Below are positions 62 to 57,710 of a stretch of 64,000 nucleotides of DNA, one piece after another. This stretch comes from an uncultured Chloroflexia bacterium. GTDB taxonomy: Bacteria > Chloroflexota > Chloroflexia > QHBQ01 > JADMIH01. The DNA lies in assembly GCA_963797095.1 (NCBI GenBank), contig CAWCNY010000006.1, forward strand, positions 736,001 through 800,000, given 5' to 3'. Made by a program: the position numbers and the translations under genes. Positions within the stretch are counted from its first letter, which is position 1; each line of letters opens with the position of its first letter. The notes beneath the pieces were generated by a model, which saw nothing but the letters and a program-made list of their open reading frames with translations, was not told the origin of the DNA and ran no database searches.

Positions 62-553
62 TTGAGAGAGGCGGGCACTGAGAAAATCGTGGGCAGGAGA
101 GTGATTGATTGGTCGGAGAGCCTGGGTAGCTACGGAATGGGCGGGCCGGGATTCTTCGGGTTGAGATTGGCAGCGCAGGGCGAATACCCGGAGGAATGGC
201 TAGCATTGAGGTTATGGGGCGCTGACAACTGGCTCTTGCTCGACGATCAGTGGGTGGGAGCGCACCCCAACCAGTATGATATTCAGGAGCCTCTCTACAG
301 CAATTTCGGCGAGGAGGGAAGCTGGGATAGAGTGTCGGAGAAGGTGCGCGGTGCGCTGTTGAATGATGTCAAGATCGAGCGCGACCACTCGCTGATTTTT
401 CTGACGGTGGACGCTGCGCCGCATAGATTGGAGATCCCCGCCGACACATCCAGGCTACCGCTCTACGGAGGCACGATGCAGCCCCATGTCTGGAACCCCG
501 ACGAGGACCAGCGGGACGCGTGGATCATCGCGCAAGGCGAGTTGTGGGTCTAA
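62..553 (+). CDS. hypothetical protein
   Basis: 163-aa ORF with protein-like composition, ends 2 nt before the next ATG; start (TTG) uncertain. Confidence 0.6.
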   Translation: MREAGTEKIVGRRVIDWSESLGSYGMGGPGFFGLRLAAQGEYPEEWLALRLWGADNWLLLDDQWVGAHPNQYDIQEPLYSNFGEEGSWDRVSEKVRGALLNDVKIERDHSLIFLTVDAAPHRLEIPADTSRLPLYGGTMQPHVWNPDEDQRDAWIIAQGELWV

Positions 554-555
554 TT

Positions 556-1786
556 ATGAATTTTGACCTTACACAAGAGCAACAACGCATCCAAACCCTG
601 GCGCGCGAGTTCGCGCAGACAGAAGTTGCGCCCGTAGCGCGAGAGGCCGACGAACGCGGGGAGTTCCCTGCCCAGCTGGTGCCGCGCATGGGCGAGTTGG
701 GCTTCCTGGGCGCGCTGATACCGGGCGAGTATGGCGGATCTGGCCTTGATTATCTTAGCTACGCGCTGATTTGCGAGGAGTTGGGGCGCGTCAATTCGTC
801 GGTGCGCGGCTTCTTGACCGTACACGCGGGCCTGGTGGCGGGCTGCATCACCGAGTGGGGCACTGAGGAGCAAAAGCACCGCTACTTGCCCAGGCTTGCC
901 ACAGGCGAGTGGATCGGGTGCTACGCCCTCACCGAGCCGAACGCGGGGTCGGATGCGGCGAGTATCGAGACGACCGCCGCGCAAGTTCCGAGTTCCGAGT
1001 TCCAGGTTCCAAGTTCCAGAGTCAGCTGAGCCAACCGGGAACCAGGAACCAGCAACCGGCAACTCAGATTACACTCTGGAAGGAGAAAAGATCTGGATCA
1101 CCAACGGGGCCAGCGCCAGGCTTGCGATAGTGTTCGCCAGTATTGACAGGAGCCTGCGACACAAAGGGATCTGCGCCTTCCTTGTGGAGACCGACACTCC
1201 CGGGTTCAATAGAGAGGCCATGCCGGGCAAGGAGCTTGGGCACAGGGCCTCGGAGCACGTGCACATCATCATGAAAGGGTGCCGCGTGCCGGGTGATGCC
1301 ATGCTTGGCAGTCCTGGTGAGGGATTCCGGGTGGCGATGTCGGCGCTCGACCGGGGTAGGCTCGGAGTGGCTGCCGGGGCTGTGGGCGTAGCGCAGGCCT
1401 GCCTCGATGCCTCGGTGGCCTATACGCAGGAGAGGTGGCAGTTCGGCCAGCGGATCGCCGATTTCGAGATGGTGCAAGCCAGCCTGGCCGATATGGCCGC
1501 CGATGTTGAGGCCGCGCGGTTGCTCACTTACAAGGCTGCCTGGACCAAAGACAGGGGCTTGCCCGCCACGAAGGCCACCTCCATTGCCAAGCTGTTCGCC
1601 ACCGAGGCGGCGGCTCGCGCGGCGTCGGAGGCGGTGCTGCTGCATGGCAATCGGGGCTATTCAAGCGAGTACCCCGTTGAGCGCCATTACCGCGATATCA
1701 AGGGGTTGCAGATTTACGAGGGCACCAGCCACATCCAGCGAATCATCATCGCGCGAGAGTTGGTTGGGCGGGAGAAGAAGGCTTAG
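556..1786 (+). pseudogene. acyl-CoA dehydrogenase split by an 85-nt heptamer-repeat insertion (frameshifted; possibly phase-variable)
   Basis: N-half MNFDLTQEQ...ALTEPNAGSDAASIETTA in frame 1 (stop 1027-1029); C-half DYTLEGEKIWITNG...IYEGTSHIQR in frame 2; insert 982-1066. Confidence 0.9.
982..1066. repeat. bipartite heptamer repeat: (CRRGTTC)5 arm and (AACCRGS)4 arm, imperfect hairpin
   Basis: caagttc cgagttc cgagttc caggttc caagttc ... aaccggg aaccagg aaccagc aaccggc read directly. Confidence 0.9.
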
Positions 1787-1819
1787 GGTTCAGCGCAGGG
1801 TTGGGCCGCACTGGAAAGG

Positions 1820-2635
1820 ATGATTCCTGTGATAAAGAACAAGCTTCACATCGCACTGGCCGCTTTGGGCCTGCTGGCGGGCATAGCAGCCACCCTTGTC
1901 TGGGGTGCGCTTGCCTCCAGCGCGCAGCCTGCCACCAACTGCCGCGACTTCGCCGAGACCGGGCACAAGGTGTGCGGCAAGTTCCTCGACTACTGGGACC
2001 AGCACGGCGGCCTCGCCCAGCAGGGTTACCCCATCTCCGACGAGTTCGCGGAGTTGAGCGACCTAAACGGGCAGCCCTACACGGTGCAATACTTCGAGCG
2101 CGCGGTGTTCGAGCTACACCCGGAGAACCAGCCGCCTTATGATGTTCTGCTAACACAGCTAGGCACGTTACGCGCCAGGGAGAAGTACCCGACAGGCTTC
2201 CCATCGGCCCAGGAGGTGCCATTCTACGAGGACCGCACAGGCCCTGTCGAGTTGATCCAGTCGTTCTATAACGCGGTCAACCGCAAGGAGTACCAGCGGG
2301 CTTACAGCTACGTCGAAACTAACACCCTCGCGATCAGCTACGACGACTTCGTGAAGTTCTACGAGCCGATCTCGCTGGTCACCTCCTACCTGGGCACGCC
2401 CAAAGAAGAGGGCGCAGCGGGAAGCACCTACGCCAGCCTACCCTTCGTGGCCGTTGGCACCTACACTGATGCCTCGGTTCGCACCTTCTACGGGTGCTTC
2501 GTGCTGCGACATACCAATCCGGGGATCGACCCCGACCCTAACTCTACGCTATGGCGCATCTACGGCTACGCGATCAACGAAGCCCCGCCCAACCTGCCCA
2601 TCGCCCAGATGCTGTCAAGCGGGTGCAAGGAATAG
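1820..2635 (+). CDS. secreted protein with Chloroflexota-type YW..GGL..GYP..VQYFERA domain
   Basis: signal peptide, RBS AAGG; paralogue of 2745..3554. Confidence 0.85.
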   Translation: MIPVIKNKLHIALAALGLLAGIAATLVWGALASSAQPATNCRDFAETGHKVCGKFLDYWDQHGGLAQQGYPISDEFAELSDLNGQPYTVQYFERAVFELHPENQPPYDVLLTQLGTLRAREKYPTGFPSAQEVPFYEDRTGPVELIQSFYNAVNRKEYQRAYSYVETNTLAISYDDFVKFYEPISLVTSYLGTPKEEGAAGSTYASLPFVAVGTYTDASVRTFYGCFVLRHTNPGIDPDPNSTLWRIYGYAINEAPPNLPIAQMLSSGCKE

Positions 2636-2744
2636 TTCCTGCTTGATAGCTCGTACTGTGTACTGCTTTTCGGAATATCAAGATACGTCACTGAAGGATT
2701 CTGCTGTGCCTTTGGTTGGGCGCGGCAGATGAAAGGAGATCATT

Positions 2745-3554
2745 GTGTTTCGGATTAATCGTTCTATAGTTTTGCCTGTTCTTGGCGCTATGGCGGCGCT
2801 GGGCGGCGTTGGGATGGGGGTTTCTCTGTCCCAAGCTCAGCCTGCATCCAATTGCCGCGCTTTCCCTGAAACGGGGCAGCAGATTTGCGGCAGGTTCCTC
2901 ACCTACTGGGCTCAGCACGGCGGGTTGGCCCAGCAGGGTTATCCGCTCAGCGGCGAGTTTACCGAGGTAAGCGACCTTGACGGCAAACCCTACACGGTGC
3001 AATACTTTGAGCGCGCCGTGTTCGAGCTACACCCGGAGAACCAGCCGCCGTACGATGTGCTGTTGTCGCAGTTGGGCACGTTCAGGGCCAAAGAGAAGTA
3101 CCCCAACGGCTTCCCAAGCAACGGCCAGACCCCGCCACCCTTCTACGAGGACCGCACCGACCCGGCCAACTTCATGCAGTCGTTCTACAACGCGATCAAC
3201 CGCAAGGAGTACCAGCGGGCTTACAGCTATTTCGATACAGGGACCGACAAGCCGTCGTATGACGACTTTGTGGCCGGGTACAGCGATACAGTGAGCGTGA
3301 CCGTCTACATAGGCAAGTATGAGCAGGATGCAGGCGCGGGCAACGTCTACGCAAGCGTGCCGACCGTACTGGTGGCGGCCCACACAGATGGGAGTGTGCA
3401 TACATACGCCGCTTGTTATATACTCCACCATACAAACCCCGGCATAGACCCCGCGCCCGATGCCGCGCTCTGGAAGGTGCAGAAGGGCACCGCCACCGAG
3501 GATACCTCGGGAACGCCCATAGCCGCCTTGCTTGAGAGACCTTGTGGGCCGTAA
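2745..3554 (+). CDS. secreted protein, tandem paralogue of 1820..2635
   Basis: RBS AAGGAG + GTG; shares PYTVQYFERAVFELHPENQPPYDVLL and FYNAxNRKEYQRAYSY. Confidence 0.85.
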   Translation: MFRINRSIVLPVLGAMAALGGVGMGVSLSQAQPASNCRAFPETGQQICGRFLTYWAQHGGLAQQGYPLSGEFTEVSDLDGKPYTVQYFERAVFELHPENQPPYDVLLSQLGTFRAKEKYPNGFPSNGQTPPPFYEDRTDPANFMQSFYNAINRKEYQRAYSYFDTGTDKPSYDDFVAGYSDTVSVTVYIGKYEQDAGAGNVYASVPTVLVAAHTDGSVHTYAACYILHHTNPGIDPAPDAALWKVQKGTATEDTSGTPIAALLERPCGP

Positions 3555-3573
3555 AGCTACGAAATAAGCAATA

Positions 3574-3644
3574 GGGGCACCCACGCGAAGGTGCCCCGTC
3601 GGCCACAGATCGCGGCTTGCGAACAGGGCACCCGTGTGGGTGCC
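3574..3644. repeat. two REP-like GGGCACC...GGTGCC hairpins
   Basis: ggggcacccacgcgaaggtgcccc and gggcacccgtgtgggtgcc in the intergenic gap. Confidence 0.55.
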
Positions 3645-3695
3645 AATACGGGTTTGTGCACTATTTGTCGGAGTGCTTAGTCAGGAGGGAATACA

Positions 3696-5045
3696 ATGCC
3701 GTATTCGGAGTACTGGAACCCTAAGAACGAGACGATGCCGCGTGAGGAGATCGAGCAGCTACAGCTTGTGAAGCTGCGGCGGATGGTAGATTACGCTTAC
3801 GAGCGGGTGCCGTTCCATCGGAAGAGTTGGGACGCGGCAGGGTTCAAGCCTGAGCAGTTGAATTCGCTGGATGATCTGCGCCGCATTCCGTTCATGACCC
3901 GCGAGGAGTGGATGGAGTCGTTGCAGGAGAAGCCCCTCTTTGGCGACCTCCTCTCCACCGACCCGGTGCACGCTACGCGCTACCATCTCACCTCAGGCAC
4001 CACCGGGCGGACGCCTATCCGCGTGCTCGATAGCCTGAAAGACTGGGAGTGGATCGCCGAAATGTGGTGCTATGGGCTGTGGGGTTTCGGGATCAGGCCC
4101 GAAGACATAGTCTACTTTGCCTTCGGCTACGGTTCGTTCATAGGCTTCTGGGGCGCGCACATGGCCTGCGAGAAGATGGGCGCGCTCGTCATCCCCGGCG
4201 GCGCGCAAACCACCGAGGCCCGCATCAAGCAGATCGTTGAGCTAGGCGTGACCACCGTTTGCTCCACCCCCACCTACGCACTGAACATGTGGGCCAAGGC
4301 GCGGGAGATGGGCATCGACCTCGCAAAAGAGAGCAAGGTCGACAAGCTGATCGCGTCGGGCGAGCCTGCCGGCTCCATCCCTGCCGCCAAGCGCCAGCTT
4401 GAGCAAGCCTGGGGCGCGAAGTGCGGTGACACCGCTGGTATGACCGAGCTTGGCACGATCATGATCTTCGAGTGCTCGCACCAACCCGGCGGCACCCACA
4501 TCATCGAGGACCACTATATAGAGGAAGTGATCAACCCCGAAACGGGCGAGCCTGTCGGCTACGGCGAATTGGGCGAGCGCGTGGTCACCTCCTTCGGTCG
4601 CGGCTTCATCCCGGTAGTACGCTACCGCACCAAGGACATGGTGATGAAGGTGCCCGCATCTACGTGCACCTGCGGCAGGACCTGGGATATCTACGACGGC
4701 GGCATCCGTGGTCGCTGGGACGATATGAAGTTGATCCGTGGCACCAACGTCTACCCACGCGCCGTGGAGTCCATCGTTCGCGAGTACGAAGCGATAGAGG
4801 AGTTCCAGATCTACGTCTGGCGCAAAGACGACCTCCAGGACGAGATCAGTGTGAAGGTAGAGATCAAGCCCGGCCACGAGGACGCGTGGCACAACCTGCA
4901 CCGGGCTATGGTCAAAGACCTGGCGCAGGCGCACGAAGGTTTGCGCTTCAACGTCGACCGCGTCGAGCACGGCACCCTCCCCAGGTTCGAGCTAAAGGCC
5001 AAGCGGCTGGTAGATGCGCGGCCAGTAGCAAGATACGACGAGTGA
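3696..5045 (+). CDS. phenylacetate-CoA ligase family (PaaK-like) adenylate-forming enzyme
   Basis: TSGTTG P-loop, GEP, RYRTKD, GRWDDMKLIRGTNVYP motifs; RBS AGGAGG. Confidence 0.9.
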   Translation: MPYSEYWNPKNETMPREEIEQLQLVKLRRMVDYAYERVPFHRKSWDAAGFKPEQLNSLDDLRRIPFMTREEWMESLQEKPLFGDLLSTDPVHATRYHLTSGTTGRTPIRVLDSLKDWEWIAEMWCYGLWGFGIRPEDIVYFAFGYGSFIGFWGAHMACEKMGALVIPGGAQTTEARIKQIVELGVTTVCSTPTYALNMWAKAREMGIDLAKESKVDKLIASGEPAGSIPAAKRQLEQAWGAKCGDTAGMTELGTIMIFECSHQPGGTHIIEDHYIEEVINPETGEPVGYGELGERVVTSFGRGFIPVVRYRTKDMVMKVPASTCTCGRTWDIYDGGIRGRWDDMKLIRGTNVYPRAVESIVREYEAIEEFQIYVWRKDDLQDEISVKVEIKPGHEDAWHNLHRAMVKDLAQAHEGLRFNVDRVEHGTLPRFELKAKRLVDARPVARYDE

Positions 5046-5060
5046 TGAGTGACAAGCTTT

Positions 5061-5102
5061 CCGACTACCGACTACCGACTACCGACTACCGACTACCGAC
5101 TA
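5061..5102. repeat. (CCGACTA)6 heptamer tandem repeat
   Basis: six exact copies counted. Confidence 0.95.
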
Positions 5103-5125
5103 CCATCCGATTCGAAGGATGACCT

Positions 5126-5950
5126 GTGAGCAATAGCACTGACATAAACCGTGAGGTGGCGGCGATCTGGGACGCTAATGCCGCCTGGTGGGACGAGCAG
5201 ACGGGCGAGGGCAACGTCTCGCAGAAATCGCTGATCATGCCCGCCATCGAAAAGCTGCTTCAATTGCAGCCCGGTGAGACTGCCCTTGAGGTGGCTTGCG
5301 GCAACGGGTACTTCTCGCGGCGCATGATTGGCCTGGGGGCCGCCAGGGTGGTGGCCCTCGATTTCAGCGCGAAGTTCATCGAGATCGCCCGCGCCAGGAC
5401 CGGGCAAACAGGGCCGAGCGACAAGATCGAGTTCCACCGGATAGATGCTACAGACGAGGCGGCGCTGCTTGCCCTCGGCGAAAGGCGATTCGATGCGGCG
5501 GTAGCTAACATGGCGCTGATGGACATGGCCGAGATCGAGCCGTTGATGCGAGCGCTGTCACGCCTCTTGAAGCCGGGCGGGCGGTTCGTCTTTTCGGTGA
5601 CGCACCTCTACTTCAACCACACAGGGATTTCCAGGGTATTGGAGGAGGTCACAGGCGAAGATGGGCGGCTCGCGGAGCAATTCAGCGTGAGGGTCACGCA
5701 CTACGCCAGTTTCGGGGACGGCACGCCCAGGCTGGGGATCGCAATCCCGGACCAGCCCAAATCACAGTACTACTTCGAGCGCACCCTGGCAGGCTTGCTT
5801 GGCGCGGCCTTCCGCGCGGGCCTGGTGCTCGACGGTCTTGAGGAACCCACCTTCGGCCCGGAGGTCGAGGCTAAGCGCACTATGTCGTGGGTAAACTGGC
5901 ACGAGATCCCACCTTTTATGATAGCGCGTCTGCGCGTACCAATGGCTTGA
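5126..5950 (+). CDS. class I SAM-dependent methyltransferase
   Basis: ALEVACGNG motif I, VALDFS, FDAAVANMAL, LLKPGGRFVF. Confidence 0.9.
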   Translation: MSNSTDINREVAAIWDANAAWWDEQTGEGNVSQKSLIMPAIEKLLQLQPGETALEVACGNGYFSRRMIGLGAARVVALDFSAKFIEIARARTGQTGPSDKIEFHRIDATDEAALLALGERRFDAAVANMALMDMAEIEPLMRALSRLLKPGGRFVFSVTHLYFNHTGISRVLEEVTGEDGRLAEQFSVRVTHYASFGDGTPRLGIAIPDQPKSQYYFERTLAGLLGAAFRAGLVLDGLEEPTFGPEVEAKRTMSWVNWHEIPPFMIARLRVPMA

Positions 5951-7061: not shown

Positions 7062-7131
7062 ATCAGGGATCAGGAACCAGGGTGCAGTTTGCCGTATGCA
7101 AAACGCATTGATTCCTGATCCCTGATCCCTG
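7062..7131. repeat. heptamer hairpin: ATCAGGG-type arm / CCCTGAT-type arm
   Basis: atcaggg atcagga accaggg ... ttgattc ctgatcc ctgatcc ctg. Confidence 0.8.
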
Positions 7132-7612: not shown

Positions 7613-7660
7613 GTCTAGGACGAAACACGCGGGACGAACGCTCTCAAATAGATTATCTTG

Positions 7661-7740
7661 AACCGGGAACCAGCAACCAGCAACCAGCAACCAGCAACCA
7701 GCAACCTGGAACCTGGAACCTGGAACCTGGAACCGGTAAC
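7661..7740. repeat. heptamer array AACCGGG (AACCAGC)5 (AACCTGG)4
   Basis: read directly; same AACCNGS units as the 982-1066 insert. Confidence 0.92.
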
Positions 7741-8969: not shown

Positions 8970-10772
8970 GTGCAGTTGGAATCATACGACACATTCGAGC
9001 ATGACGTACTGGTGATAGGTGCGGGAGGGTCGGGGCTGCGAGCCACTATCGCGGCGGCGCAGGCCGGGCTGAACGTGGGGGTAGTGTGCAAGTCGCTGCT
9101 GGGAAAGGCGCACACCGTGATGGCCGAAGGAGGCGTGGCGGGCGCGCTGGGCAACCTGGACAAGAAGGACAACTGGCAGGTGCACTTCATGGACACCATG
9201 AGGGGCGGGGCCTTCCTCAACAACTGGCGCACCGTCGAAATCCTCGCCAAAGAAGCCCCTGAGCGGGTGCTTGAGCTTGAGCAGTGGGGAGCGGTGTTCG
9301 ACCGCACTCCTGAGGGCCTGATCATGCAGAGACCCTTCGGGGGACACACCTATCGCCGCCTGAGCCATGTGGGCGACCGCACCGGGCTTGAGCTGATCCG
9401 CACGTTGCAGGACAAGGCGGTGTCGCTCGGCATGACCTGCTATATGGAGACCACGATCATGAGGTTGCTGAAGGACGGCGACCGGGTGGTGGGGGCGTTC
9501 GGCTATTACCGCGAGTTGGGGCGGTTTTTCCTGATCAAGGCGAAGGCGGTGGTGCTGGCGACCGGGGGATGGGGCAGGATGTACAGGGTTACGTCCAATT
9601 CCTGGGAGTCGACGGGGGATGGGGCTATCCTGGCCTTCAACGCGGGAGCCGAGTTGATGGGTATGGAGATGGTCCAGTTCCACCCTACAGGCATGGTGTG
9701 GCCGCCCGGTGTGCGCGGTCTGCTCGTAACAGAGGGCGTGCGCGGCGAGGGCGGCATCCTGCGCAACAAGAAGGGCGAGCGCTTCATGTTCGACCCCAAG
9801 TACACCCCTCCCTCCTACAAGGGGCGCTACGCCGATACCGAGGAGGAGTCCGCTCGCTGGCTGACCGATAAGGACAACAACAGGCCGCCACCCGACCTGC
9901 TCCCCCGCGACGTAGTGGCGCGGGCGATCTACCGCGAGGTGCTGGCGGGCAGTGGCTCTGAGCATGGCGGCGTCTATCTCGACGTGACGCACCGAGGCGC
10001 TGACTACATCAGGAAGAAGCTCCCCAGCATGTACGAGCAATTCCATGCCCTCGGTGATATTGACATAACTAAAGAGCTGATGGAAGTCTATCCCACCATT
10101 CATTACACGATGGGCGGGGTGAAGGCCGAGCCTGAAACGTGCGCGACCAATGTGCCGGGTCTCTTCGCGGCGGGTGAGACGGCAGCGGGTGTGCATGGGG
10201 CCAACCGGTTGGGCGGCAACGCCCTGTGCGACCTCCTTGTATTCGGCAAGCGGGCGGGCGAAGCAGCTTCCCAGTACGTGCAGTCGGTTGATACAGGGAA
10301 GATAGACGACGCGGAGTTGAGCGCCGAGATGGATAGGATGCTGGCCCCCTTCCAGTCGCAGGGCAAGGAGAACCCCTACCTGATCACCGAGGAGTTGCAG
10401 GCCGCAATGCAGGATGGGGCGATGATCGCCCGCACCGAGGACGGCCTGACGGGCTGCCTCCGGAAGATAGCCAGTTTGCAGGAGCGCGCCAAAAACATCC
10501 ATATAGACGGCAACCGGCTCTATAATCCTGGCTGGCACACCGCCAGGGATATACGCAATATGCTGAAGGTGTCGGAGATCATCGTAAGGTGCGCGCTAGC
10601 CCGGAAGGAGAGCCGGGGCGCTCAGTGGCGGCTCGACTATCCCGACCCCGACCCGGAATGGGGCAAAAAGATGCTGATCGCTACCAGGGGATCTCAAGAC
10701 GAGGTTGTGATCGGGACCACACCCGTGCCCCAAATGCCGCCGGAGTTGGCTAAGCTATTCGAGAGTAAATAG
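8970..10772 (+). CDS. sdhA: succinate dehydrogenase/fumarate reductase flavoprotein
   Basis: GAGGSG, AHTVMAEGG, QFHPT, TEGVRGEGG, HYTMGG, HGANRLGGN, ESRG. Confidence 0.95.
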   Translation: MQLESYDTFEHDVLVIGAGGSGLRATIAAAQAGLNVGVVCKSLLGKAHTVMAEGGVAGALGNLDKKDNWQVHFMDTMRGGAFLNNWRTVEILAKEAPERVLELEQWGAVFDRTPEGLIMQRPFGGHTYRRLSHVGDRTGLELIRTLQDKAVSLGMTCYMETTIMRLLKDGDRVVGAFGYYRELGRFFLIKAKAVVLATGGWGRMYRVTSNSWESTGDGAILAFNAGAELMGMEMVQFHPTGMVWPPGVRGLLVTEGVRGEGGILRNKKGERFMFDPKYTPPSYKGRYADTEEESARWLTDKDNNRPPPDLLPRDVVARAIYREVLAGSGSEHGGVYLDVTHRGADYIRKKLPSMYEQFHALGDIDITKELMEVYPTIHYTMGGVKAEPETCATNVPGLFAAGETAAGVHGANRLGGNALCDLLVFGKRAGEAASQYVQSVDTGKIDDAELSAEMDRMLAPFQSQGKENPYLITEELQAAMQDGAMIARTEDGLTGCLRKIASLQERAKNIHIDGNRLYNPGWHTARDIRNMLKVSEIIVRCALARKESRGAQWRLDYPDPDPEWGKKMLIATRGSQDEVVIGTTPVPQMPPELAKLFESK

Positions 10773-10791: not shown

Positions 10792-11077
10792 ATGCGTATT
10801 GACGCTTTCGTTTGGTTGCCCCACATCGTGGATAAATTGGCGATCAAGCACCATGTCACGCAAGATGAAGCCGAGGAAGTGTTCTTCAATAGAGCGAAGT
10901 ATCGCTTTGTGGAATCGGGGTTATAATCAGGGTGAGGATGTTTATTCCGCCAGTGGGCAAACTGACGGCGGTAGATATCTGATCGTCTTCTTCATACACA
11001 AGCAAGATAATACGGCAATGATCCTGAGCGCACGCGATATGGACAAGAATGAGCGCAGAAGATATGAGCAAAAATAA
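10792..11077 (+). pseudogene. BrnT-like toxin with a 1-nt frameshift at GGGG 10917-10920
   Basis: MRIDAFVWLPHIVDKLAIKHHVTQDEAEEVFFN...ESG in one frame (TAA 10924-10926); GQTDGGRYLIVFFI...ILSARDMDKNERRRY in the next. Confidence 0.8.
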
Positions 11078-11348
11078 TACGCGCAAACAGACCACTATCT
11101 CGAAGGCGAAGAGCGTAGATGAGATAGCAGACTACTGGGATACCCATAGCCTGGATGACCATTGGGAAGAGACATCCGAGGTCGATTTTGAGGTAAGGGC
11201 ACAGCGCCACCACAGAATTACCATCGATCCTGATGTTTATGTGAAAATCGAGGAGCAAGCCCGTACAAGAGGTGTCCTGCCTGAAACGCTAATCAACCTA
11301 TGGTTGGTTGAGCGATTGCAGAAGGCAGAGAGTTCGCCATCGTCCTAA
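11064..11348 (+). CDS. BrnA/CopG-like antitoxin
   Basis: EIADYWDTHSL..., LINLWLVERL; overlaps toxin 3' end. Confidence 0.75.
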   Translation: MSKNNTRKQTTISKAKSVDEIADYWDTHSLDDHWEETSEVDFEVRAQRHHRITIDPDVYVKIEEQARTRGVLPETLINLWLVERLQKAESSPSS

Positions 11349-11383
11349 GAACCAGTATGTTGTCTCGAAGGAGAGAAAGTAGT

Positions 11384-12361
11384 ATGGCAACCGAAACCGA
11401 GCAGAAGAGTACCACCACCCTGACACCAGAACAGGCAACCAGGCTGCGCGAAACGGGCGAGATGCCATCTCAGCCCGCGCAGACCGGGCGCACGGTTACG
11501 CTGCGCGTGTTCAGAGGCGACGCCGATGGAGGCACCGAGCAAGAGTACGCGGTGCCGACCTTCCCCGGCATGGTGGTGCTCGACGCCATCCACTATATCC
11601 AGCACCACATAGATACCACCCTCTCCTGCCGGTGGAACTGCAAAGCGGGCAAGTGTGGCTCGTGCAGCGCCGAGATCAACGGGCAGCCGCGTCTCATGTG
11701 CAAGGCCCGCGTGCGCGACTATGCGGGTGAGGGCAACACGATCGTGGTCCACCCACTCAAAACCTTCCCGCTGATCAAAGACCTTGTGACGGACGTATCC
11801 TGGAACTACAGGATGTCTGCCCGCATCGCGCCTTTCACGCCCAGAGAAGATGCTCCGAGGCCCCTGGTTATGCAGCAGATGGATGTGGACCGCATACAGG
11901 AGTTCCGCAAGTGCATAGAGTGCTTCCTGTGCCAGGATGTGTGCCATGTGCTAAGAGAGCACAACCGCAAAGACATATTCTACGGCCCCAGGCAGATGAT
12001 CAAGCTGGCAAACCTCGATATGCATCCCTACGATGGTCTCGACCGGCGTGAGATGGTAAAGGAGGAGTCGGGTGTGGGGGCGTGCAACATCACCAAGTGC
12101 TGCACCGAGGTGTGCCCTGAGCATATTCACATCACAGACAACGGAATTATACCTCTCAAGGAGCGGGTAGCCGATCTCTATTTCGACCCAGTGATGTGGT
12201 TAGCGCGCAAGATGGCGTTCCAGAATAATCGAGGCAGGCCGAGCGCCTCCAACTTCCAGCCCGTGACCATGTTCGGGTCGGCATACCCACCTCCCACCGA
12301 GTTCGAGTGGCGCGCCCACGCAGCCCCGCAAGCCGCTGCCGAGGATGGAGGGCGGGCCTGA
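11384..12361 (+). CDS. sdhB: succinate dehydrogenase iron-sulfur subunit
   Basis: CKAGKCGSC, CIECFLCQDVC, CNITKCCTEVCP; RBS AAGGAG. Confidence 0.95.
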   Translation: MATETEQKSTTTLTPEQATRLRETGEMPSQPAQTGRTVTLRVFRGDADGGTEQEYAVPTFPGMVVLDAIHYIQHHIDTTLSCRWNCKAGKCGSCSAEINGQPRLMCKARVRDYAGEGNTIVVHPLKTFPLIKDLVTDVSWNYRMSARIAPFTPREDAPRPLVMQQMDVDRIQEFRKCIECFLCQDVCHVLREHNRKDIFYGPRQMIKLANLDMHPYDGLDRREMVKEESGVGACNITKCCTEVCPEHIHITDNGIIPLKERVADLYFDPVMWLARKMAFQNNRGRPSASNFQPVTMFGSAYPPPTEFEWRAHAAPQAAAEDGGRA

Positions 12362-18107: not shown

Positions 18108-18158
18108 TTCTAAAATAGCCAAAATGACGGCGAAGCCGTCATTTTGGCTATTTTAGAA
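18108..18158. repeat. perfect 24-bp palindrome with GAA loop, between convergent genes
   Basis: TTCTAAAATAGCCAAAATGACGGC-GAA-GCCGTCATTTTGGCTATTTTAGAA, followed by a CCCCTCCCCAATTTGGGGAGGGG hairpin. Confidence 0.9.
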
Positions 18159-44171: not shown

Positions 44172-44201
44172 TAGTTGGTAGTCAGAATTAGGAGCACTCG
44201 T

Positions 44202-44243
44202 CCGACTACCGACTACCGACTACCGACTACCGACTACCGACTA
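44202..44243. repeat. (CCGACTA)6 heptamer repeat with a short complementary arm at 44171-44184
   Basis: six exact copies; upstream gtagttg gtagtca. Confidence 0.92.
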
Positions 44244-44255
44244 CCAGAGAAAACC

Positions 44256-46684: not shown

Positions 46685-46735
46685 TTCTGAAAAAGCCAAA
46701 ATGGCGGCCCAGCCGCCATTTTGGCTTTTTCACAA
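46685..46735. repeat. 24-bp palindrome with CCA loop (family of 18108); may act as terminator
   Basis: TTCTGAAAAAGCCAAAATGGCGGC-CCA-GCCGCCATTTTGGCTTTTTCACAA. Confidence 0.88.
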
Positions 46736-46868: not shown

Positions 46869-46992
46869 CTGCACAGGACTGAGGTATGAGCACTGAGCAC
46901 TGAGTGGGCGCACCAACGTGGATACATATATTGATGCCCGCCTGCCGCTTGGCCTCTACCCCCGTCCTGATTTTATTTATGGAGGCATAGCG

Positions 46993-50528: not shown

Positions 50529-50724
50529 TATGCTTTCTCTCTTTCTGTCGGGCTATGCCTTCCTTGCGGCTGGATCATGTGGGTTAGGCGATGCCGCGCA
50601 GCATGGAACGTCAGAGCATCTCCCGATGCCTATCTCTCAATATAACACAGGGCACGCGCAGACCATAAACTTCACCCTCCCGACAGGTCTAGAAGCATCG
50701 CCTATAGATAAAGGCTCCCCCGAT

Positions 50725-50882
50725 TGCGGCAACCGTTCGTAGTCTTTGCTCAGCCGACGATTGCGGTTCAGCCATGCGAAAGTGCGTTCCACAACCCATC
50801 GTCGGGGTAGCGCCACAAAGCCTTTTTGCCTTTCCGTCTTCTCTACTATCTCCAACTGCCACCGCAGCGCAGGCTTCACCCA
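50725..50882 (-). pseudogene. IS5-family transposase C-terminal remnant
   Basis: [33 protein letters not shown]. Confidence 0.8.
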
Positions 50883-50935
50883 TTCTAAAACAGGCAAAAA
50901 TGGCGGCGCAGCCGCCATTTTTGCCTGTTTTAGAA
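50883..50935. repeat. perfect 25-bp palindrome with GCA loop (family of 18108)
   Basis: TTCTAAAACAGGCAAAAATGGCGGC-GCA-GCCGCCATTTTTGCCTGTTTTAGAA. Confidence 0.9.
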
Positions 50936-51033
50936 AGCCCCAATATTTAGGGAGGGTTGGGGTTTTGGAGCATCCTGATGCCGTTTTGTACCAATTTCAA
51001 ACATCGGGATGCTCACGAACATGAGCAAAGGCG

Positions 51034-51081
51034 TTATTTCTTCTTGCCGCCTTTCTTGCCGTCCTTCTTCTTTGCTCGCAT
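51034..51081 (-). CDS. 15-aa lysine-rich micropeptide MRAKKKDGKKGGKKK
   Basis: AAGGAGGTGA RBS 6 nt before ATG, TAA stop, downstream hairpins; absent from the ORF track. Confidence 0.65.
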   Translation of the reverse strand: MRAKKKDGKKGGKKK

Positions 51082-51141
51082 CGTCGTTCACCTCCTTCGT
51101 CGAGAAATCACTACACTTGCCTCTGTTTCGGAGGTAGTGCA

Positions 51142-51197
51142 TACACTATAGCGTAAGTAGATTCCACTATAGTGTAGAGAGAGTACATTATAGTGTA
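51142..51197. promoter_or_regulatory. three 14-bp palindromic boxes (consensus TACACTATAGTGTA) at 21-bp period
   Basis: 51142 tacactatagcgta, 51163 tccactatagtgta, 51184 tacattatagtgta. Confidence 0.75.
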
Positions 51198-51288
51198 TTC
51201 TCTGCGCCATATTATACCACATCTTGTCAAATCACCCCACATAGCCTTTTCGACGTATAGACGTATAATAGTATTGGAGGATATAGAA

Positions 51289-51663
51289 ATGGGCAAGCAA
51301 TGGATAGCAGGCGCGGTTCTTCTACTCGTTTGGGTTGGTGCCTCGATGTATTTCATCGTGGCGGGCCTCGACGTAGATCTACCCCCCGAAGTTACCGCTT
51401 ACCTGCCCCACTTCGTGGTGGTGCTCGTGGCGGGCCTCGTCTTTTTCCGCTTCCACCGTACAACCGGCGATCCCGCTCTCGATGCCGCTAATCTATGGGC
51501 CGTTGCCTCCGGCGTCGTCCTGCTGGTCCTCCTCGGTTTCGCACTGGTCACCTGGGGCACCGACCCCAACCTGGGGAAAGATTGGCTGCTCACCGCCATC
51601 GCCTGGTCGCCCATCGCCCTTTTCCTGATTTTTCGCTACCGCAACCAGCTCAGGCCCCGCTGA
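51289..51663 (+). CDS. 4-TM membrane protein
   Basis: TATAAT 51265-51270, RBS GGAGG, hydrophobic ORF. Confidence 0.75.
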   Translation: MGKQWIAGAVLLLVWVGASMYFIVAGLDVDLPPEVTAYLPHFVVVLVAGLVFFRFHRTTGDPALDAANLWAVASGVVLLVLLGFALVTWGTDPNLGKDWLLTAIAWSPIALFLIFRYRNQLRPR

Positions 51664-51670
51664 TTGCATT

Positions 51671-53599
51671 TCATCTGTCCGTGCCGCAACTGGGGAAGAA
51701 GACGCTCGACACGATCTTAGAAGTTTGCCCCCTCGTGACCAGTGCCCCTGGCCTGAAGTATGGCCTGTTGTCCGGTCCCACGCACGGTTCTCCCGGCCCT
51801 CCACAGGGATAGCCGTTGATCGCGCCCAACCCATGTAGCGCCTCTATATACTCGTAGAAGGTGTGCGTTGGAGGCACATCCTCGAAACTCTGCACCGCAA
51901 TCGTATCGCTGCACCCGTACGCCAGGCACACTATCTTCGATAGCTGGCCCCTGGTGGTGTTGCTTCCAGGCCGGAAGTAGGGCTTGTTGTCCGGCCCCAC
52001 GCATGGCTCTCCTGGCCCTCCACAGGGATACCCATTGATAATAGCGCGGCTTGCCAACCTCTCGATGAAGTCGTGGAATGTAGACCCCACAGGCACATCC
52101 TGGAAGGTCTGTTCAGGGTGCGCTTCTGCATAGCCTGCGGCATTAGCCACGATCTTGGCAATCTGACCCCTGGTGACGTCGTTGTTGGGTCTGAAGGTGC
52201 CATCCGAATAACCCGAAACGATGCCATTGCAAGCCAGGCACTCTATATAAGTGTAGAAGGTAGAGCCGGAAGGCACATCGGAGAACTCGATCGCGCAGAT
52301 CGTAGGGCCAGGCGTAGGGGTGGGTGTGGTTGGGCATGGGTTGTAGTGCTCGATTAGCGTAAGAGGAGTAGCTGTATTATCCGCATAGTAACCCGCCGCC
52401 CACACATCCGTTGATGACACCGCGGCCACACCGTACAGGAAGTTATCGCCTGAGCTGATGTCGGGGCTTGACACCGCGCTCCACGCGCTTCCGTTCCAAT
52501 GCAGGATCAGCGCCTGCGGAACGCCCACGTTCTCATAATATCCCACCGCCCACATATCGCTTCCCGAAACCGCCGTTGCACCGTACAGATAGTTATCCTC
52601 CCTCCCCACGTTCGGGCTGGTAACCACGCTCCATGCGCTCCCGTTCCAGTGGAGGGTAAGGGTCTGCTCCACACCTCCCGCACTGTCATTGTAATCTCCT
52701 ACCGCCCACGCATCACTGGACGATATGGCGGTCACTCCGTACAAATAATTCTCGTTAGCTCCCACCCCTGGACTCGACACAACCGTCCAACTGCTACCGT
52801 TCCAATGGAGCGTGAGCGGCTCCCGAACACTCCCTGCCCCGTTGTCATAGTTCCCCACAGCCCACACATCGCTCGCGGATTTAGCGTCAACTCCGTAAAG
52901 GTAGTTCTCACTCGTACCCGCATCGGGACTCGACTGCTGGACCCACGTGAGGCCACTCCAATGGAGAGTAAGTGTGTGCTCATTGGTGCCATCAAAGTAC
53001 TCGCCAACGGCCCACACATCGCTCGCAGAAGTGGCTGTTACTCCATTAAGCTCGCTCTCCAACCCCGGGCTGGGACTTGTCACGGCGGACCATGAGCTCC
53101 CGTTCCAGTGAACAATAAGGGTCTTGAAGCCTGAGCTATCAGATTGATGGCCCACAGCCCACACATCGCTCGCTGAAATGGCCGTTACACCCTGAAGCTC
53201 ATTCGCCACAATGCCCGGGTTAGGGCTTGATACAACGCTCCATGTAGTGCCGTTCCAGTGCTCTATTAGCGTCTGGTGTGCGCCGACGTTGTAGTACCCC
53301 CCTACGGCCCACACATCGTTGGACGATATTGCAGCTATTCCGTTGATGAAGTGCTCTGCTGCACCGGGATTGGGGCTGGGCACCACAACCCAGTCATTAT
53401 CGCAATCAGGTGCGCTTGCGACCTGCGAGACAGCAGGCGTTTCTGCAAAAGTTGGCTGAACGGCTAGGGTCAACGCCCCCCATACAGCAATGGCCCCCAC
53501 GATAAGCGTAAATAACAAAACGATATTGCGAATGAAAGGTCTGGCCGGTTCGATTGAGGCTCGTGCTCTCGCGATAAAAATAGCAATCTTCGTAGACAT
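51671..53599 (-). CDS. S-layer homology (SLH) protein with DVWAVG-repeat beta-propeller
   Basis: 7 repeats L.GV.A.S..DVWAVG...HWNG..W; three SLH domains FSDVP/FQDVP/FEDVP...TRGQ; RBS AAGGAGG. Confidence 0.9.
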   Translation of the reverse strand: MSTKIAIFIARARASIEPARPFIRNIVLLFTLIVGAIAVWGALTLAVQPTFAETPAVSQVASAPDCDNDWVVVPSPNPGAAEHFINGIAAISSNDVWAVGGYYNVGAHQTLIEHWNGTTWSVVSSPNPGIVANELQGVTAISASDVWAVGHQSDSSGFKTLIVHWNGSSWSAVTSPSPGLESELNGVTATSASDVWAVGEYFDGTNEHTLTLHWSGLTWVQQSSPDAGTSENYLYGVDAKSASDVWAVGNYDNGAGSVREPLTLHWNGSSWTVVSSPGVGANENYLYGVTAISSSDAWAVGDYNDSAGGVEQTLTLHWNGSAWSVVTSPNVGREDNYLYGATAVSGSDMWAVGYYENVGVPQALILHWNGSAWSAVSSPDISSGDNFLYGVAAVSSTDVWAAGYYADNTATPLTLIEHYNPCPTTPTPTPGPTICAIEFSDVPSGSTFYTYIECLACNGIVSGYSDGTFRPNNDVTRGQIAKIVANAAGYAEAHPEQTFQDVPVGSTFHDFIERLASRAIINGYPCGGPGEPCVGPDNKPYFRPGSNTTRGQLSKIVCLAYGCSDTIAVQSFEDVPPTHTFYEYIEALHGLGAINGYPCGGPGEPCVGPDNRPYFRPGALVTRGQTSKIVSSVFFPSCGTDR

Positions 53600-53978
53600 C
53601 TCTGGCGTACCTCCTTGGCAGAAAGTGACAATCGCGGCACGCCGCAACTCTACCGGGATAACGCCTCAAAGATGCAACCTGGTTAGCAACACGTGCCGCG
53701 CCGACTATTGTGCCGGTCGCGCTCGCACCGCTATTGCCGATCCCTTTCTGAGCAGGTGGGTAAACCCAAATATGGCAAATAAGTATGGTGAGCCGATAAG
53801 TAAGACAGGCCATCTCTTGAGATGGACAAATGAATAAGAAGGACCAGGGGGCGAACGCGCCGGCAACACTACAGTAGGGGGTACTCATTATATCACTAAC
53901 TCCCCAGGAATCAAGGCACCCACCCTCGGTAAATGTCCAGATTTGCGGTGGGGCAATTTCCACGATATTGTATGAGGC

Positions 53979-55400
53979 ATGAGCTGGGAAGAAGAAGTAA
54001 TGGCTTTGCGGGCTGAAGTAGTCATCCTCAAAGAGCAGCTTGCCCAAGCATTGGCTGCGAACAGCCAGTTGCAGGCACAACTAGACAAGTACCGAAGCGA
54101 ACCACCCTCTTTCGTCAAGCCCAACACTGCCAAGTCCAAAGACCAGGCTAACTCCGAGAAGAAACCACGCCGCAAACGAGCCAAAGACCAAAATGGTGCC
54201 AGGCGTAGAGAGCAAACACCCACCCAAACGGTGCAGCACCACATAGAGATGTGCCCTGACTGTGGATATGGACTAAGCCAGCCCCAACTGGCCTCCGGCT
54301 CCAGACGCCAGGTGATAGAACTCCCTCCTCCCCTTCCTGTAGAAGTCACCGAGCACCAGTTGTTCAAGAGTTGGTGCGCCCGATGCTCCAAATGGCATTA
54401 TCCTCCACTCGATTTGAGCGCTCAGGGGGAGGTGATTGGACAAAGCAGAATGGGGATACGCATCGCCTCCCTGATAGCTTACTTACGCACCACCCTGAGA
54501 ATGCCGGTGCGTCTGATTAGAGAATACCTGCACATCGTGCACAACTTGCTCATCTCTACAGGTGAGATTGCGGACCTGCTGCATCGAGTGGCCGAGGCAG
54601 AGAAGGTGAGAAAAGCAGCACAAGATATCAAAGAGGGGATAAGACAGAGCAGTGTGGTGCATGGGGACGAGACAGGGTGGCGAGAAGGTGGGCAGAATGG
54701 CTATATCTGGTGCTTCTGCACGCCCCATGGTGAGCGATACTACGAGTATGACCACAGTCGGGGAGGAGCAGTGGCCAGGCGTATCCTCGGCTCACAGTTC
54801 AAGGGTACACTGGTCACCGACTTCTACGCGGCATACAATGAATTCCCAGGAGAACACCAACGATGCTGGGTGCATCTGCTGAGGGACTTACACGAGTTGA
54901 AGGAAGAGCACAAAGGGAATGAAGAAGTGGTGGAGTGGGCCAAAGGGGTGCGCGCTCTGTATGACACAGCCCAAGAGTGCCTGCGAGCTGAACAGTGCGA
55001 ACAGGGTGAACACGGTCCACCTTCTGCGGTAGAGAGAGAAGTGTTGTACATTGAGCTAATGGAGGGTGTGAGAGAGTTGGGAGGTAAGTACGCCTCAGCC
55101 AAGCCTCACAAGGAGCACCCATGTCATGCTCTGTGCAAGAGGCTGCTTCGCCACCAGGACGAGCTATTCCGCTTCGTACTACAAAGTGGCCTCTCGGCGG
55201 ACAACAACCTGGCGGAGAGGAGTGTGCGGGCGGTGGTGGTGATGCGCAAGGTGTCGGGAGGGTCGCAATCAGCAAGGGGGAGTGCCACACGCATGAGGCT
55301 GGCTACATTGTTCGGCACCTGGCGAGCTAAGGGTCTCAACCCCTTCTTTGAGTGTTTCACCCTTCTCTCTCAACCCCAACCCCAGCCCCTCACACCCTAA
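53979..55400 (+). mobile_element. IS66-family transposase (apparently intact single ORF)
   Basis: coiled coil, CPDCG, RQVIELP, HGDETGW, LVTDFYAAY, QRCWVHLLR, DNNLAERSVR; element ends not resolved. Confidence 0.9.
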
Positions 55401-56199
55401 TTCTGAACGCTATCCACCCTCGGCGGGTGCGGGCCAGCATTTAGGCAGCTTTTGTGAGGGTGCGAGTTTTGGGCCAACTTTGTTTCCATCGGTCACTGAG
55501 CAACTCAGCCCTCAATGTCAGTACCCCTTGAGCACCCCGCTTGCCCCAGCACATGCCTGCTCCCTTCATGCGTGTTCCGATCAGCCGCTTGCAAGCACTC
55601 TCCACTGTGCCACTCCCAATCGGATAGCCCATCGCTCGGTACTGCGAGTAGCGCATCCTCTCTCGGTTAGTCTGGAAGTAGTGGATTTGCTCTGCGGCTG
55701 CCTCGCCCGCCTCACCTTCGCGTTTACTCTCCCGGTGCAGAGCCACTATCACTGCTTCCACTCGCCCTTCCCATAGCTCCCCCTCCCATCGCTTCACCCA
55801 CCCTACCGCTTCGGTTGTGCCCTGTCCAAAGATGCCGTTGCCCACCGCCCACAAGTGCTCCACAGCGTGATACCAATCCAGCACCTCTCCAGCACCTCCA
55901 CTCGATTAGCAAAGTGCTCATCGAACTGTACCCAGTTGGAGGGTGCTCCATCTCCCAGGCATACCACCACCTCATCTGTGCCGATCCCGCGCCTGGCCGC
56001 TTCCGCAGCGAGCCGCTCTCCCGCTTCTCCCATTGAGCCGACTTCAGCTATGTAGCTTTGCTTGGTAGCCCGACCTCCATCTACCTCCCCTGCTTCGTTG
56101 AGGGTAGGTTCAGCCCAAAACACCACTCCCGCTTTGGCATCATGCCAACCATCTTCATAGCGCACCTTCCCCGCGTCCAATGCCACTGCCCATATTCCA

Positions 56200-56253
<54 letters not shown>

Positions 56254-56440
56254 ATTGGGTCAATCCCAGCTTTGAGTAGCGCCACCCCTTCTGCCTGTAG
56301 GTTCTCCTCCAATGCCAGACCTCTCTGTTCGGTTATCCGTTGGACTTCTCTGGTAGAGACGGAGATGCCACTGAGCACTTCCTATAATGGCCCTGGAAAA
56401 CTGGACCACGAAACGGCGAAAGCTCCTCTGAAAATAAGAG

Positions 56441-57685
56441 TTAGGCCACTTGTTGAACCTGTTGAATAGGCACAAGCTGCACCTGGTATCCAAGGCTCTC
56501 CAAGCGACGGACTGCCCGCTTCTCTACCATCTGCCGTTCTCGCTCATCAAAGTAGTTGCCTCCCAACTCCTGGTATGATACCCGACGCAAAAGCACATGA
56601 TACACAATCACCAAGATAGAATGAGCTACCGCTACCATCGCTCTCTTGCTCCCTCTTCTACGCACCAACCGCCCGTATTGAGCCGCCAGGTATGTGCCTT
56701 TGGTACGCACTGCCCCATGTGCTGCCTCTATCAGCACCGCCTTGAGCCACGGACTTCCCTTGCGCGTCTTCCCACTCAACCGTTTACCCCCGCTCTGGTT
56801 GTTGCCCGGACACATGCCCGCCCAAGAAGCCAGGTGGTGCGCAGACGCAAATCGGGTCATGTCCACTCCTATCTCCGCTACCAGCACTTGAGCCGCTCGC
56901 TCCGAGATGCCCGGCACACTGTCCAACATTTCCAACTGCCCCTCCTCAACGAAAGGGCGCGCGCTCTCCTCAATCTCGGTGCTCACTCTCTCTATGGACG
57001 CATCAAGATAGTCAATGTGTCCAAGGTGCTCGGCTATCATGAAGCGGTGGTATCCGCGCACTCTACCGGAAAGAGCCGCCACCAACGCTTCGTGCTTCTC
57101 CCTCAGCCGTCCCTGGGCGAGATCGGCCAAGATATTGGCATCAGTCTGCCCATCAACCAGCGCACCCAACATGGCTCTGGCCGATACACCCATAATATCG
57201 GTGGCAACTCCTGCCAGCTTGATGTTGGCATCCTCCAGTATCTTCTGCAACCGATTGATGGTATTCGCTTTCTCCCTCACCAGCGTAGTGCGGAAGCGGG
57301 TCAACTCCCGCAGGTCACGTTGTGCGGCATCTGGGATGAAGCTCCCTCGGAGCAACCCGTGCCGAAGCAGATCGGCTATCCACTCCGAGTCCTTGACATC
57401 GGTCTTACGACCAGGCACTGCCTTGATATGCTGGGCGTTGACCACCAACAACTCGAACTGCTCGTAGCCTTCCAACAGGTTGTAGATTGGCTTCCAGTAA
57501 ACGCCGGTGGACTCCATCGCCACATGGGTGCACCCAACTTGCGCCAGCCAATCAGCCATGTGCAATATGTCGGCGGTCATGGTACTGAAGGTACGTACCG
57601 CCTTACCAGAGGGAGTGAGCAAACAAGCCACTATCGTCTTCTTGTGTACATCAAGACCACAGCATCGCTCGTAAATCGCGTTCAT
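56441..57685 (-). CDS. IS110-family recombinase (DEDD RuvC-like)
   Basis: GLDVHK, AMESTGVYW, KTDVKDSEWIA, SVPGI, AGMCP..SG; RBS AAGGAGG. Confidence 0.93.
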   Translation of the reverse strand: MNAIYERCCGLDVHKKTIVACLLTPSGKAVRTFSTMTADILHMADWLAQVGCTHVAMESTGVYWKPIYNLLEGYEQFELLVVNAQHIKAVPGRKTDVKDSEWIADLLRHGLLRGSFIPDAAQRDLRELTRFRTTLVREKANTINRLQKILEDANIKLAGVATDIMGVSARAMLGALVDGQTDANILADLAQGRLREKHEALVAALSGRVRGYHRFMIAEHLGHIDYLDASIERVSTEIEESARPFVEEGQLEMLDSVPGISERAAQVLVAEIGVDMTRFASAHHLASWAGMCPGNNQSGGKRLSGKTRKGSPWLKAVLIEAAHGAVRTKGTYLAAQYGRLVRRRGSKRAMVAVAHSILVIVYHVLLRRVSYQELGGNYFDERERQMVEKRAVRRLESLGYQVQLVPIQQVQQVA

Positions 57686-57710
57686 GGACCACCTTACCTC
57701 CTTGCTTGTA

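Follow-up and report, generated by a model that had tools for sequence, protein, structure and literature searches.

An out-of-frame heptamer-repeat hairpin in an acyl-CoA dehydrogenase gene of an uncultured Chloroflexia bacterium, and related inserts in homologous enzymes

The heptanucleotide tandem repeats of cyanobacteria (Calothrix, Nostoc, Anabaena) go by the name STRR, and Elhai is said to have described small dispersed repeats in Nostoc. Heptameric repeats are described as over-represented in bacteria, variable in unit number, situated near the ends of open reading frames (ORFs) and under-represented in coding regions, those of Nostoc and Xanthomonas being mainly intergenic (PMC4692102). 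The Rickettsia palindromic elements (RPEs) are palindromic repeats translated in frame in metabolic genes, at positions compatible with the protein fold (PMC10969869, citing Ogata et al., 2000). The element considered here is a heptamer-repeat hairpin at positions 982-1066 of a 64-kb stretch of contig CAWCNY010000006.1 (hereafter the window, 64,000 nucleotides [nt] in length) from an uncultured Chloroflexia bacterium, where it interrupts an acyl-CoA dehydrogenase gene out of frame and was first singled out by a sequence-only reading of the window. Homologous enzymes carry such inserts in frame in the same loop, and the frameshift in the window is interpreted, with confidence standing at about the midpoint, as a recent and real length change in a mutable repeat tract, which would have produced a null and possibly revertible allele and not a regulated switch. 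The description of the insert and of other repeat arrays draws on the window, and the comparative analysis on 80 related loci and on predicted homologues.

The split gene and its insert

The dehydrogenase gene and the parts of its insert are arranged as follows.

556-981, + strand: acyl-CoA dehydrogenase, N-terminal part, frame 1, ending in ..ETTAA (Pfam Acyl-CoA_dh_N 1-113 of 113, E 5e-42, and the start of Acyl-CoA_dh_M; annotated as fragment P0121)
982-1066, + strand: heptamer-repeat hairpin insert, 85 nt as delimited in the sequence-only reading, with a net excess over relatives of 73 nt (sequence, Tandem Repeats Finder, inverted repeats, fold)
984-1018, + strand: left arm, five 7-nt units, AGTTCCG twice, AGTTCCA, GGTTCCA and AGTTCCA (Tandem Repeats Finder, period 7; sequence)
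1019-1030, + strand: hairpin apex, 12 nt, with TCAGCTGA, an 8-nt palindrome, at 1022-1029 and TGA 1027-1029 as the frame-1 stop (sequence; ORF 520..1029)
1031-1065, + strand: right arm, five 7-nt units, CCAACCG, GGAACCA twice, GCAACCG and GCAACTC, complementary to the left arm (Tandem Repeats Finder; inverted repeats)
1067-1786, + strand: acyl-CoA dehydrogenase, C-terminal part, frame 2, with stop (Pfam Acyl-CoA_dh_M 27-96 of 97, Acyl-CoA_dh_1 1-149 of 150; 91% identical to locus L006)

Tandem Repeats Finder reports period-7 arrays at 984-1022 (5.4 copies of AGTTCCG) and 1032-1063 (4.6 copies), and the two arms are 72-74% complementary (74% for the pair 987-1017 / 1038-1068). Folded as RNA and scored against shuffled sequences, 982-1066 reaches -31.4 kcal/mol (z -5.0), which none of 200 shuffles equals, and 975-1075 reaches -33.1 kcal/mol (z -4.0). 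The repeat hairpin is beyond chance, and the out-of-frame element with partly complementary arms that the sequence-only reading had described is real. Its longest perfect repeat run is 20 nt, or 2.9 units, and there is no homopolymer at the site. The arms are themselves inverted repeats; the sole candidate for a target duplication is the dinucleotide GC, present both at 979-980 and at 1052-1053, a length that allows no judgment, and neither a recombinase nor defined element ends were found at the insert. A known RNA element was rejected as well: an Rfam search over 800-1300 returned nothing above threshold, its only match (mir-3160, 28 bits versus a gathering score of 80) being a chance match to the hairpin shape.

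On either side of the insert the gene is complete. Frame 1 leads from ATG 556 to GCG 979-981 (..ETTAA) and continues to TGA 1027-1029, and frame 2 leads from GAT 1067 (DYTLEG.., DYTLEGEKIWITNG..) to the stop at 1784-1786, the ORFs covering the two pieces being 520..1029 and 896..1786. The N-terminal piece matches Acyl-CoA_dh_N 1-113 of 113 and Acyl-CoA_dh_M 1-26 of 97, placing the break inside a single domain, between Acyl-CoA_dh_M positions 26 and 27, and the N-terminal, middle and C-terminal domain profiles are covered end to end by the two pieces jointly. Neither half contains a further stop or frameshift, bearing out the earlier statement that both are intact, and the closest solved structures are those of glutaryl-CoA and butyryl-CoA dehydrogenases.

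The net frame error is +1 nt, and the loss of one base or of one 7-nt unit repairs it equally. Skipping base 1018 in silico yields 409 codons, the length of the insert-bearing homologue P0008, with 30 residues between the alanine and the aromatic residue that flank the loop, while skipping one 7-nt unit yields an open frame of 407 codons with 28 residues. The sequence-only reading had proposed one CGAGTTC unit too many, which stands insofar as removal of a unit does open the frame, but the assignment of the error to one unit does not, given that loss of a single base restores the length of P0008. As the insert is one base too long, translation ends at its apical TGA, leaving the C-terminal 239 codons untranslated.

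The same loop in related enzymes and the spread of heptamer arrays

The 80 loci were returned by a single scan of genome contigs with the C-terminal part of the dehydrogenase as query, in a collection of which the window's own genome is not part. The best of them, L006, is 91% identical to the C-terminal part encoded in the window, and the nearest records are metagenome-assembled genomes labeled Chloroflexia, Chloroflexota or Ktedonobacteraceae. The loop was compared in 36 of the 80 loci (L001-L038 minus L013 and L037, both of which start within the gene), the 42 further loci, all at most 53% identical, being left out of this comparison. In 35 of the 36, translation runs through the loop with six residues between ETTA and an aromatic residue (e.g., LKDGDW, TPEGDN), the remaining locus (L012) being masked by N at this point, and no long insert is present at this loop in the 35 readable loci. 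Alignment of orthologues, which the sequence-only reading had put forward as a check, thus reveals the empty site as a six-codon loop. The 85 nt of the window occupy the place of a native loop of 12 nt (6 codons from ETTA to Y), and the earlier statement that they replace a short loop is hence correct as to the replacement and in need of correction as to its size, the net excess being 73 nt, a multiple of three plus one.

The frame-2 translation of 983-1783 was used as query in a protein search, of which the 120 best matches were compared. Six of these 120 carry an in-frame insert in exactly this loop; they are 400-409 residues long versus the usual ~385, and their loops span 21-30 residues versus 6 in about 100 others.

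P0008: 30 residues in the loop, SRIPNSEFRIPDSEGSAAIGNQELGTRNHE
P0009: 23 residues in the loop
P0001 and P0010: 30 residues in the loop, ..FRISDFGF..SEIRNPKS.. type
P0020: 26 residues in the loop, ..VQGSKFQVQGS..TLNVERGTLN type
P0030: 21 residues in the loop, P0020 type

Back-reading from these peptides indicates that the six inserts would be encoded by heptamer hairpins of three unit types (AATTCCG-like, ATTTCGG-like and GTTCAAG-like). The left arm of the window in frame 1 (AQVPSSEFQVPSS) and the right arm in frame 2 (ESAEPTGNQEPATGNSD) align ungapped to the P0008 insert and together sum to its 30 residues; the two inserts are of the same sequence type, that of P0008 being one base shorter (90 versus 91 nt between ETTA and Y). 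When P0008 is searched against the window with tblastn, the alignment appears in both frame 1 and frame 2, because the peptides that 7-nt repeats encode are similar whichever frame is read. A second protein search, with the N-terminal piece as query, recovered the window's own N-terminal fragment (P0121) and a further five partial proteins whose tails at this loop are heptamer-coded (P0125, P0127, P0128, P0134, and P0140). The out-of-frame arrangement is seen in no relative, the six full-length insert-bearing homologues being in frame and the 35 readable loci insert-free.

An AlphaFold2 model of P0008, built from a 40-sequence alignment (mean predicted local distance difference test [pLDDT] 80, predicted template modeling score 0.82), assigns pLDDT below 50 and coil to the insert residues 147-168, which are flanked in the beta domain by strands 140-144 and 171-180. 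This is consistent with an insert that leaves a beta-turn of the acyl-CoA dehydrogenase middle domain as a disordered excursion. Since relatives carry in-frame inserts, the P0008 model points to a disordered turn, and heptamers also stand in frame in other enzymes, the element can be regarded as a repeat hairpin that is ordinarily translated and occupies a tolerant loop. The tolerance that the sequence-only reading had attributed to the loop is thereby upheld by the six homologues and by the low-confidence coil of the model, and in-frame translation at a tolerant site holds for the relatives (the six homologues and L016, described below), but not for the copy in the window.

Trees inferred with the loop masked (76 and 41 rows; quick IQ-TREE runs under LG+G4) group the window with P0008 and P0009, both of which have the same insert type, in a supported clade that counts 10-12 rows. 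P0001, in the same clade, differs in unit type and nests, at 99% support, within a set of insert-free proteins that are 95% identical to it, and P0020 and P0030 belong to another clade. Supported branches in both trees force at least three changes of insert state, and constraining the seven insert-bearing rows to a single clade is rejected (p-AU 6.6e-07 in the approximately unbiased test), though this grouping was chosen with an earlier tree already in view. The canonical ..DGD.. loop is retained in insert-free members, and because deletion of an insert would not recreate it, we read the changes as probable separate gains, in at least three parts of the tree, allele exchange by recombination being the alternative.

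Closer comparisons point to turnover of the inserts themselves. P0008 and its sister P0009 (30 and 23 residues) are 21 nt apart, the length of three units, and do not share the frame in which the left arm is read, whereas P0020 and P0030 are 15 nt apart, no multiple of 7. Over 186 residues P0122 and P0008 share 95.7% identity, and exactly 23 mid-insert residues are missing from P0122; the TRIRNSE that is left forms a non-canonical 7-residue loop, which would be the scar of a deletion or else a seed for hairpin growth. Judging from these alignments, the element appears to be gained, resized and lost between very close relatives. Two further proteins, P0013 (TQSSSS) and P0028 (8-residue loop), may resemble the P0122 case.

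Heptamer hairpins have repeatedly landed or grown at the beta-turn of the dehydrogenase middle domain, and a second hot spot is found at residues 52-64, with inserts in P0025, P0031, P0048, P0059, P0068, and P0114. At the DNA level, the 418-codon dehydrogenase ORF of L016 (9482-10738) contains an in-frame hairpin made of AAAGTCC-type units, a 55-nt loop and GACTTTG-type units, with a perfect stem (-54 kcal/mol, z -7.0), in a different loop from that of the window. This hairpin (9632-9756) stands in place of a conserved segment (GALIPGEYGGSG in the window) and does not merely add residues; segments are likewise replaced in P0059, P0025, P0031, and P0048, raising the question of whether those enzymes still work.

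Heptamer arrays extend beyond the dehydrogenase. The window contains seven period-7 arrays versus 0-1 for each of periods 4-6 and 8-12, and 37 of the 47 period-7 arrays of the 80 loci fall in the seven closest (L002, L004-L007, L016, and L036), which make up 108.5 kb of 1.15 Mb. The dehydrogenase copy lies inside a coding sequence, while the other five array loci of the window are intergenic.

5061-5104: intergenic array (CCGACTA)x6.3, no hairpin
7062-7131, + strand: intergenic heptamer-armed hairpin of GGGATCA-type units, with the architecture of the insert and a different unit (fold -35.8 kcal/mol, z -5.7)
7659-7740, + strand: intergenic array of ~11 GAACCNG/CAACCAG units, of the right-arm heptamer family, no hairpin (Tandem Repeats Finder; pattern match)
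44176-44246, + strand: intergenic hairpin with right arm (CCGACTA)x6.3 (fold z -2.5)
46887-46904: intergenic period-7 array

The right-arm repeat of the insert recurs in the array at 7659-7740: 1033-1066 and 7661-7694 are identical at 29 of 34 positions, the first 13 exactly, and GTTCCNNGTTCCNNGTTCC with up to three mismatches has 18 matches in the window versus 1.5 expected, 17 of them in 985-1063 or 7659-7740. Apart from this right-arm repeat, no near-identical second copy of the whole 982-1066 hairpin exists in the window or the 80 loci, and the loops of different hairpins share no sequence; copies of a mobile element were accordingly rejected as a description of these hairpins. The arrays at 5061-5104 and 44202-44245 are identical over 44 nt, (CCGACTA)x6.3, with unrelated flanks, and the second pairs with an upstream complementary arm at 44176-44192. 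Their equal copy number suggests copying of whole arrays rather than independent slippage, and L006 also has a CCGACTA/CTGACAA array. In L016, an ORF of 792 codons for a fused flavoenzyme (3505-5883) holds six heptamer arrays in frame (e.g., AATCCAA units, giving ..NPKSKIQNPKSK..), one of them directly before the conserved ..LLGDA.HTAHF.. motif, and its L005 orthologue (1504-3681, 725 codons) has fewer. Heptamer arrays and hairpins are hence a feature of this Chloroflexota lineage, mostly intergenic, with some in genes at surface loops.

Causes of the frameshift

The frameshift is most likely due to a recent real mutation, with assembly error in second place, and is presumably real rather than a product of assembly. 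It could have arisen through a single-base indel or through the gain of one 7-nt unit by slippage. Intragenic copies would ordinarily be translated as a disordered peptide, and the copy in the window would have become one base too long for this. The elements themselves are probably made and remodeled by slippage or hairpin-templated copying: a hairpin could originate by slippage within one arm, followed by hairpin-templated copying to the other, or alternatively by copying from other arrays, such as that at 7659-7740.

Several observations weigh against a recent real mutation or limit what can be said of its background. No conspecific sequence was found in the protein search, the best match being 93% identical over the C-terminal part. 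The in-frame homologues are drawn from predicted proteins, a source biased to open frames. Repeat hairpin tracts are hard to assemble, and the consensus, which is part of a 1.06-Mb contig, may be miscounted or chimeric. That the half downstream of the break has not decayed fits an artefact or a still-expressed gene equally, and, with no second hairpin copy in the window or the 80 loci, the element may have originated by insertion or by growth in place.

An assembly or consensus error is a tentative possibility, with chances that fall well short of even. Under it, the real insert would be in frame, having either one base or one unit less or two additional units, and the gene would be intact, its expressed product having a loop of 28-30 residues. 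Hairpin-prone repeats mislead assemblers, and the consensus of a mixed population can merge length variants. The intactness of both halves is in line with such an error, as is the fact that P0008, of the same insert type, is in frame and exactly one base shorter. So is the pattern of substitution, which downstream of the break resembles that of purifying selection: 47 window-specific codon changes retain an amino acid found in relatives versus 10 that do not (36 versus 15 in L006), in a count from which L016 was left out on account of an internal indel; the corresponding count for the upstream half (27 versus 17) is inflated, as L006 starts inside the gene, and was set aside. The terminal branch of the window (0.10-0.12) is near the median. 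With no decay downstream, the break would be either young or unreal. Against an error stand the absence of a homopolymer at the site and the state of the surrounding sequence: among the 47 other ORFs of the window compared with Pfam, all long multi-domain genes are full-length (including RelA/SpoT, cyanophycin synthetase, SdhA, and acetyl-CoA synthetase), and since no split gene appears among them in 64 kb, the assembly is not generally indel-ridden. Furthermore, length differences among close relatives mark the tract as a genuine hot spot of mutation as well.

The sequence-only reading had favored an adaptive slipped-strand ON/OFF switch, in which frequent changes by 7-nt units would toggle the enzyme by phase variation. 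A unit length that is no multiple of 3 does make each unit change shift the frame, removal of one unit opens it, and the three-unit difference between P0008 and P0009, with the left arm in different frames, would be of the expected kind. Classical contingency loci, however, have repeat tracts much longer than the 2.9 units of the longest perfect run found here. The tract moreover lies in the middle of the gene of a housekeeping-type metabolic enzyme, a single-base change explains the shift equally well, and the 15-nt difference between P0020 and P0030 is not a whole number of units. The switch is thus not supported, and we consider it improbable. An even bolder proposal, that heptamer hairpins are actively propagating or self-extending, translated selfish DNA that recolonizes enzyme loops, with the window copy still expressed or toggled via a one-unit ribosome hop or frequent slippage, is regarded as very improbable.

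Recoding, which together with RNA excision had been listed as an alternative, finds no positive evidence in the relatives seen, which keep the insert in frame, and is given very little credence. It would consist of a ribosomal +1 shift near UCC-AGA-G, or of a hop between identical codons one unit (+7) or more apart, for example from CCA 1009 to CCA 1016, or from GCG 979 to GCA 1052, skipping the hairpin as in phage T4 gene 60. The repeats offer many matched take-off and landing codons in two frames, a stable hairpin and an in-frame stop follow, and the downstream half is without decay. All six full-length insert-bearing homologues and the L016 DNA case are nevertheless in frame, which implies that the insert is normally translated, not skipped; the out-of-frame state is conserved in no relative seen, and neither a frameshift element nor an RNA family of known type emerged (Rfam, as above). 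A hungry-codon +1 shift at AGA was ruled out, AGA not being rare at 5.3 per 1000 codons. Least credible of all is the removal of 73 or 85 nt by excision or splicing, from the DNA or from the RNA, or the separate production of two fragments: skipping 979-1051 (73 nt, with GC on each side) does give 385 codons and a normal 6-residue loop, and skipping 982-1066 gives 381, but there is no intron or ribozyme signature in Rfam, no recombinase and no defined element end, relatives translate their inserts, and at the junction neither a start codon nor a ribosome-binding site is plausible for a C-terminal fragment made on its own.

Other features of the window and comparison with described systems

Several other features of the window stand apart from the heptamer elements. 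A perfect or near-perfect palindrome of 51-53 nt occurs three times (18108-18158, 46685-46735, and 50883-50935; TTCTAAAA.AG.CAAAA..GCGGC, 3 nt, complement) and constitutes a separate dispersed hairpin family, REP-like (repetitive extragenic palindrome) or terminator-like. At 1820-2635 and 2745-3554 are adjacent paralogous ORFs (271 and 269 codons) with signal-like N-termini and no Pfam match, which share ..QQGYP.S.EF.E.SDL.G.PYTVQYFERAVFELHPENQPPYDVLL.QLGT... Between the genes for the succinate dehydrogenase flavoprotein (8970-10772) and iron-sulfur subunit (11357-12361) lie, at 10799-11348, two small ORFs (92 and 99 codons) that overlap on the same strand, again have no Pfam match, and may encode small membrane subunits or represent a single shifted gene. 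The stretch 50637-59304 is rich in insertion sequences, with a DDE transposase fragment (50637-50918), transposases of the IS66 (53979-55400) and IS110 (56441-58018) families and an integrase-core fragment (58837-59304), and it contains perfect short tandem repeats (GAGCCT x8.5 at 56203-56253; ATCTGATCCG x4 at 57711-57750).

The single broken gene is of minor interest next to the pattern of repeat hairpins re-entering the same enzyme loops. Heptamer hairpins that are gained, resized and deleted between proteins 96% identical, and carried as extra peptide, may offer a natural system for studying the origin and spread of heptamer repeats, unexplained even in cyanobacteria, and the acquisition of disordered loops by proteins. 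For annotators, split genes at such hairpins may represent hypermutable sites or assembly problems, and not old pseudogenes. No description of such repeats was found in the literature on Chloroflexi/Ktedonobacteria, in a search whose coverage excludes most subscription journals.

Set beside the cyanobacterial STRR and the GGGNATC repeats of Nostoc and Xanthomonas, the present arrays are alike in having 7-nt units in few to about ten copies, dispersed over the genome with several unit sequences, and in lying mostly in short spacers between co-directional genes. They differ in belonging to the Chloroflexota, in using other units, in that many arrays are paired with a complementary array, and in standing in frame within conserved enzymes; furthermore, no G-quadruplex potential is evident in the AGTTCCG units. 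Like contingency loci, the insert has a unit that is no multiple of three, inside an ORF, so that a change in unit number shifts the frame, but unlike them it is a short, imperfect tract in the middle of the gene of a metabolic enzyme. With translational bypassing, as in phage T4 gene 60 or the yeast mitochondrial 'byp' elements, it shares a hairpin insert in a coding sequence, a stop soon after a possible take-off codon and matching codons downstream; in contrast to bypassing, relatives keep the insert in frame and translate it, and the bypass arrangement is not conserved. The elements resemble RPEs and intragenic MITEs (miniature transposable elements with inverted repeats) in being palindromic DNA in coding genes, translated as extra peptide. 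RPEs, however, are ~150 bp long with a conserved family sequence and peptide, whereas the arms here are simple 7-nt repeats, with at least three units at one site and no conserved loop, and the hairpins further depart from MITEs and RPEs in having no second whole-element copy (window, 80 loci) and possibly in lacking clear terminal repeats or a target duplication. The present elements hence combine heptameric repeats with RPE-like in-frame translation, arranged as hairpins, in enzymes, and recurrent at the same loops in the Chloroflexota.

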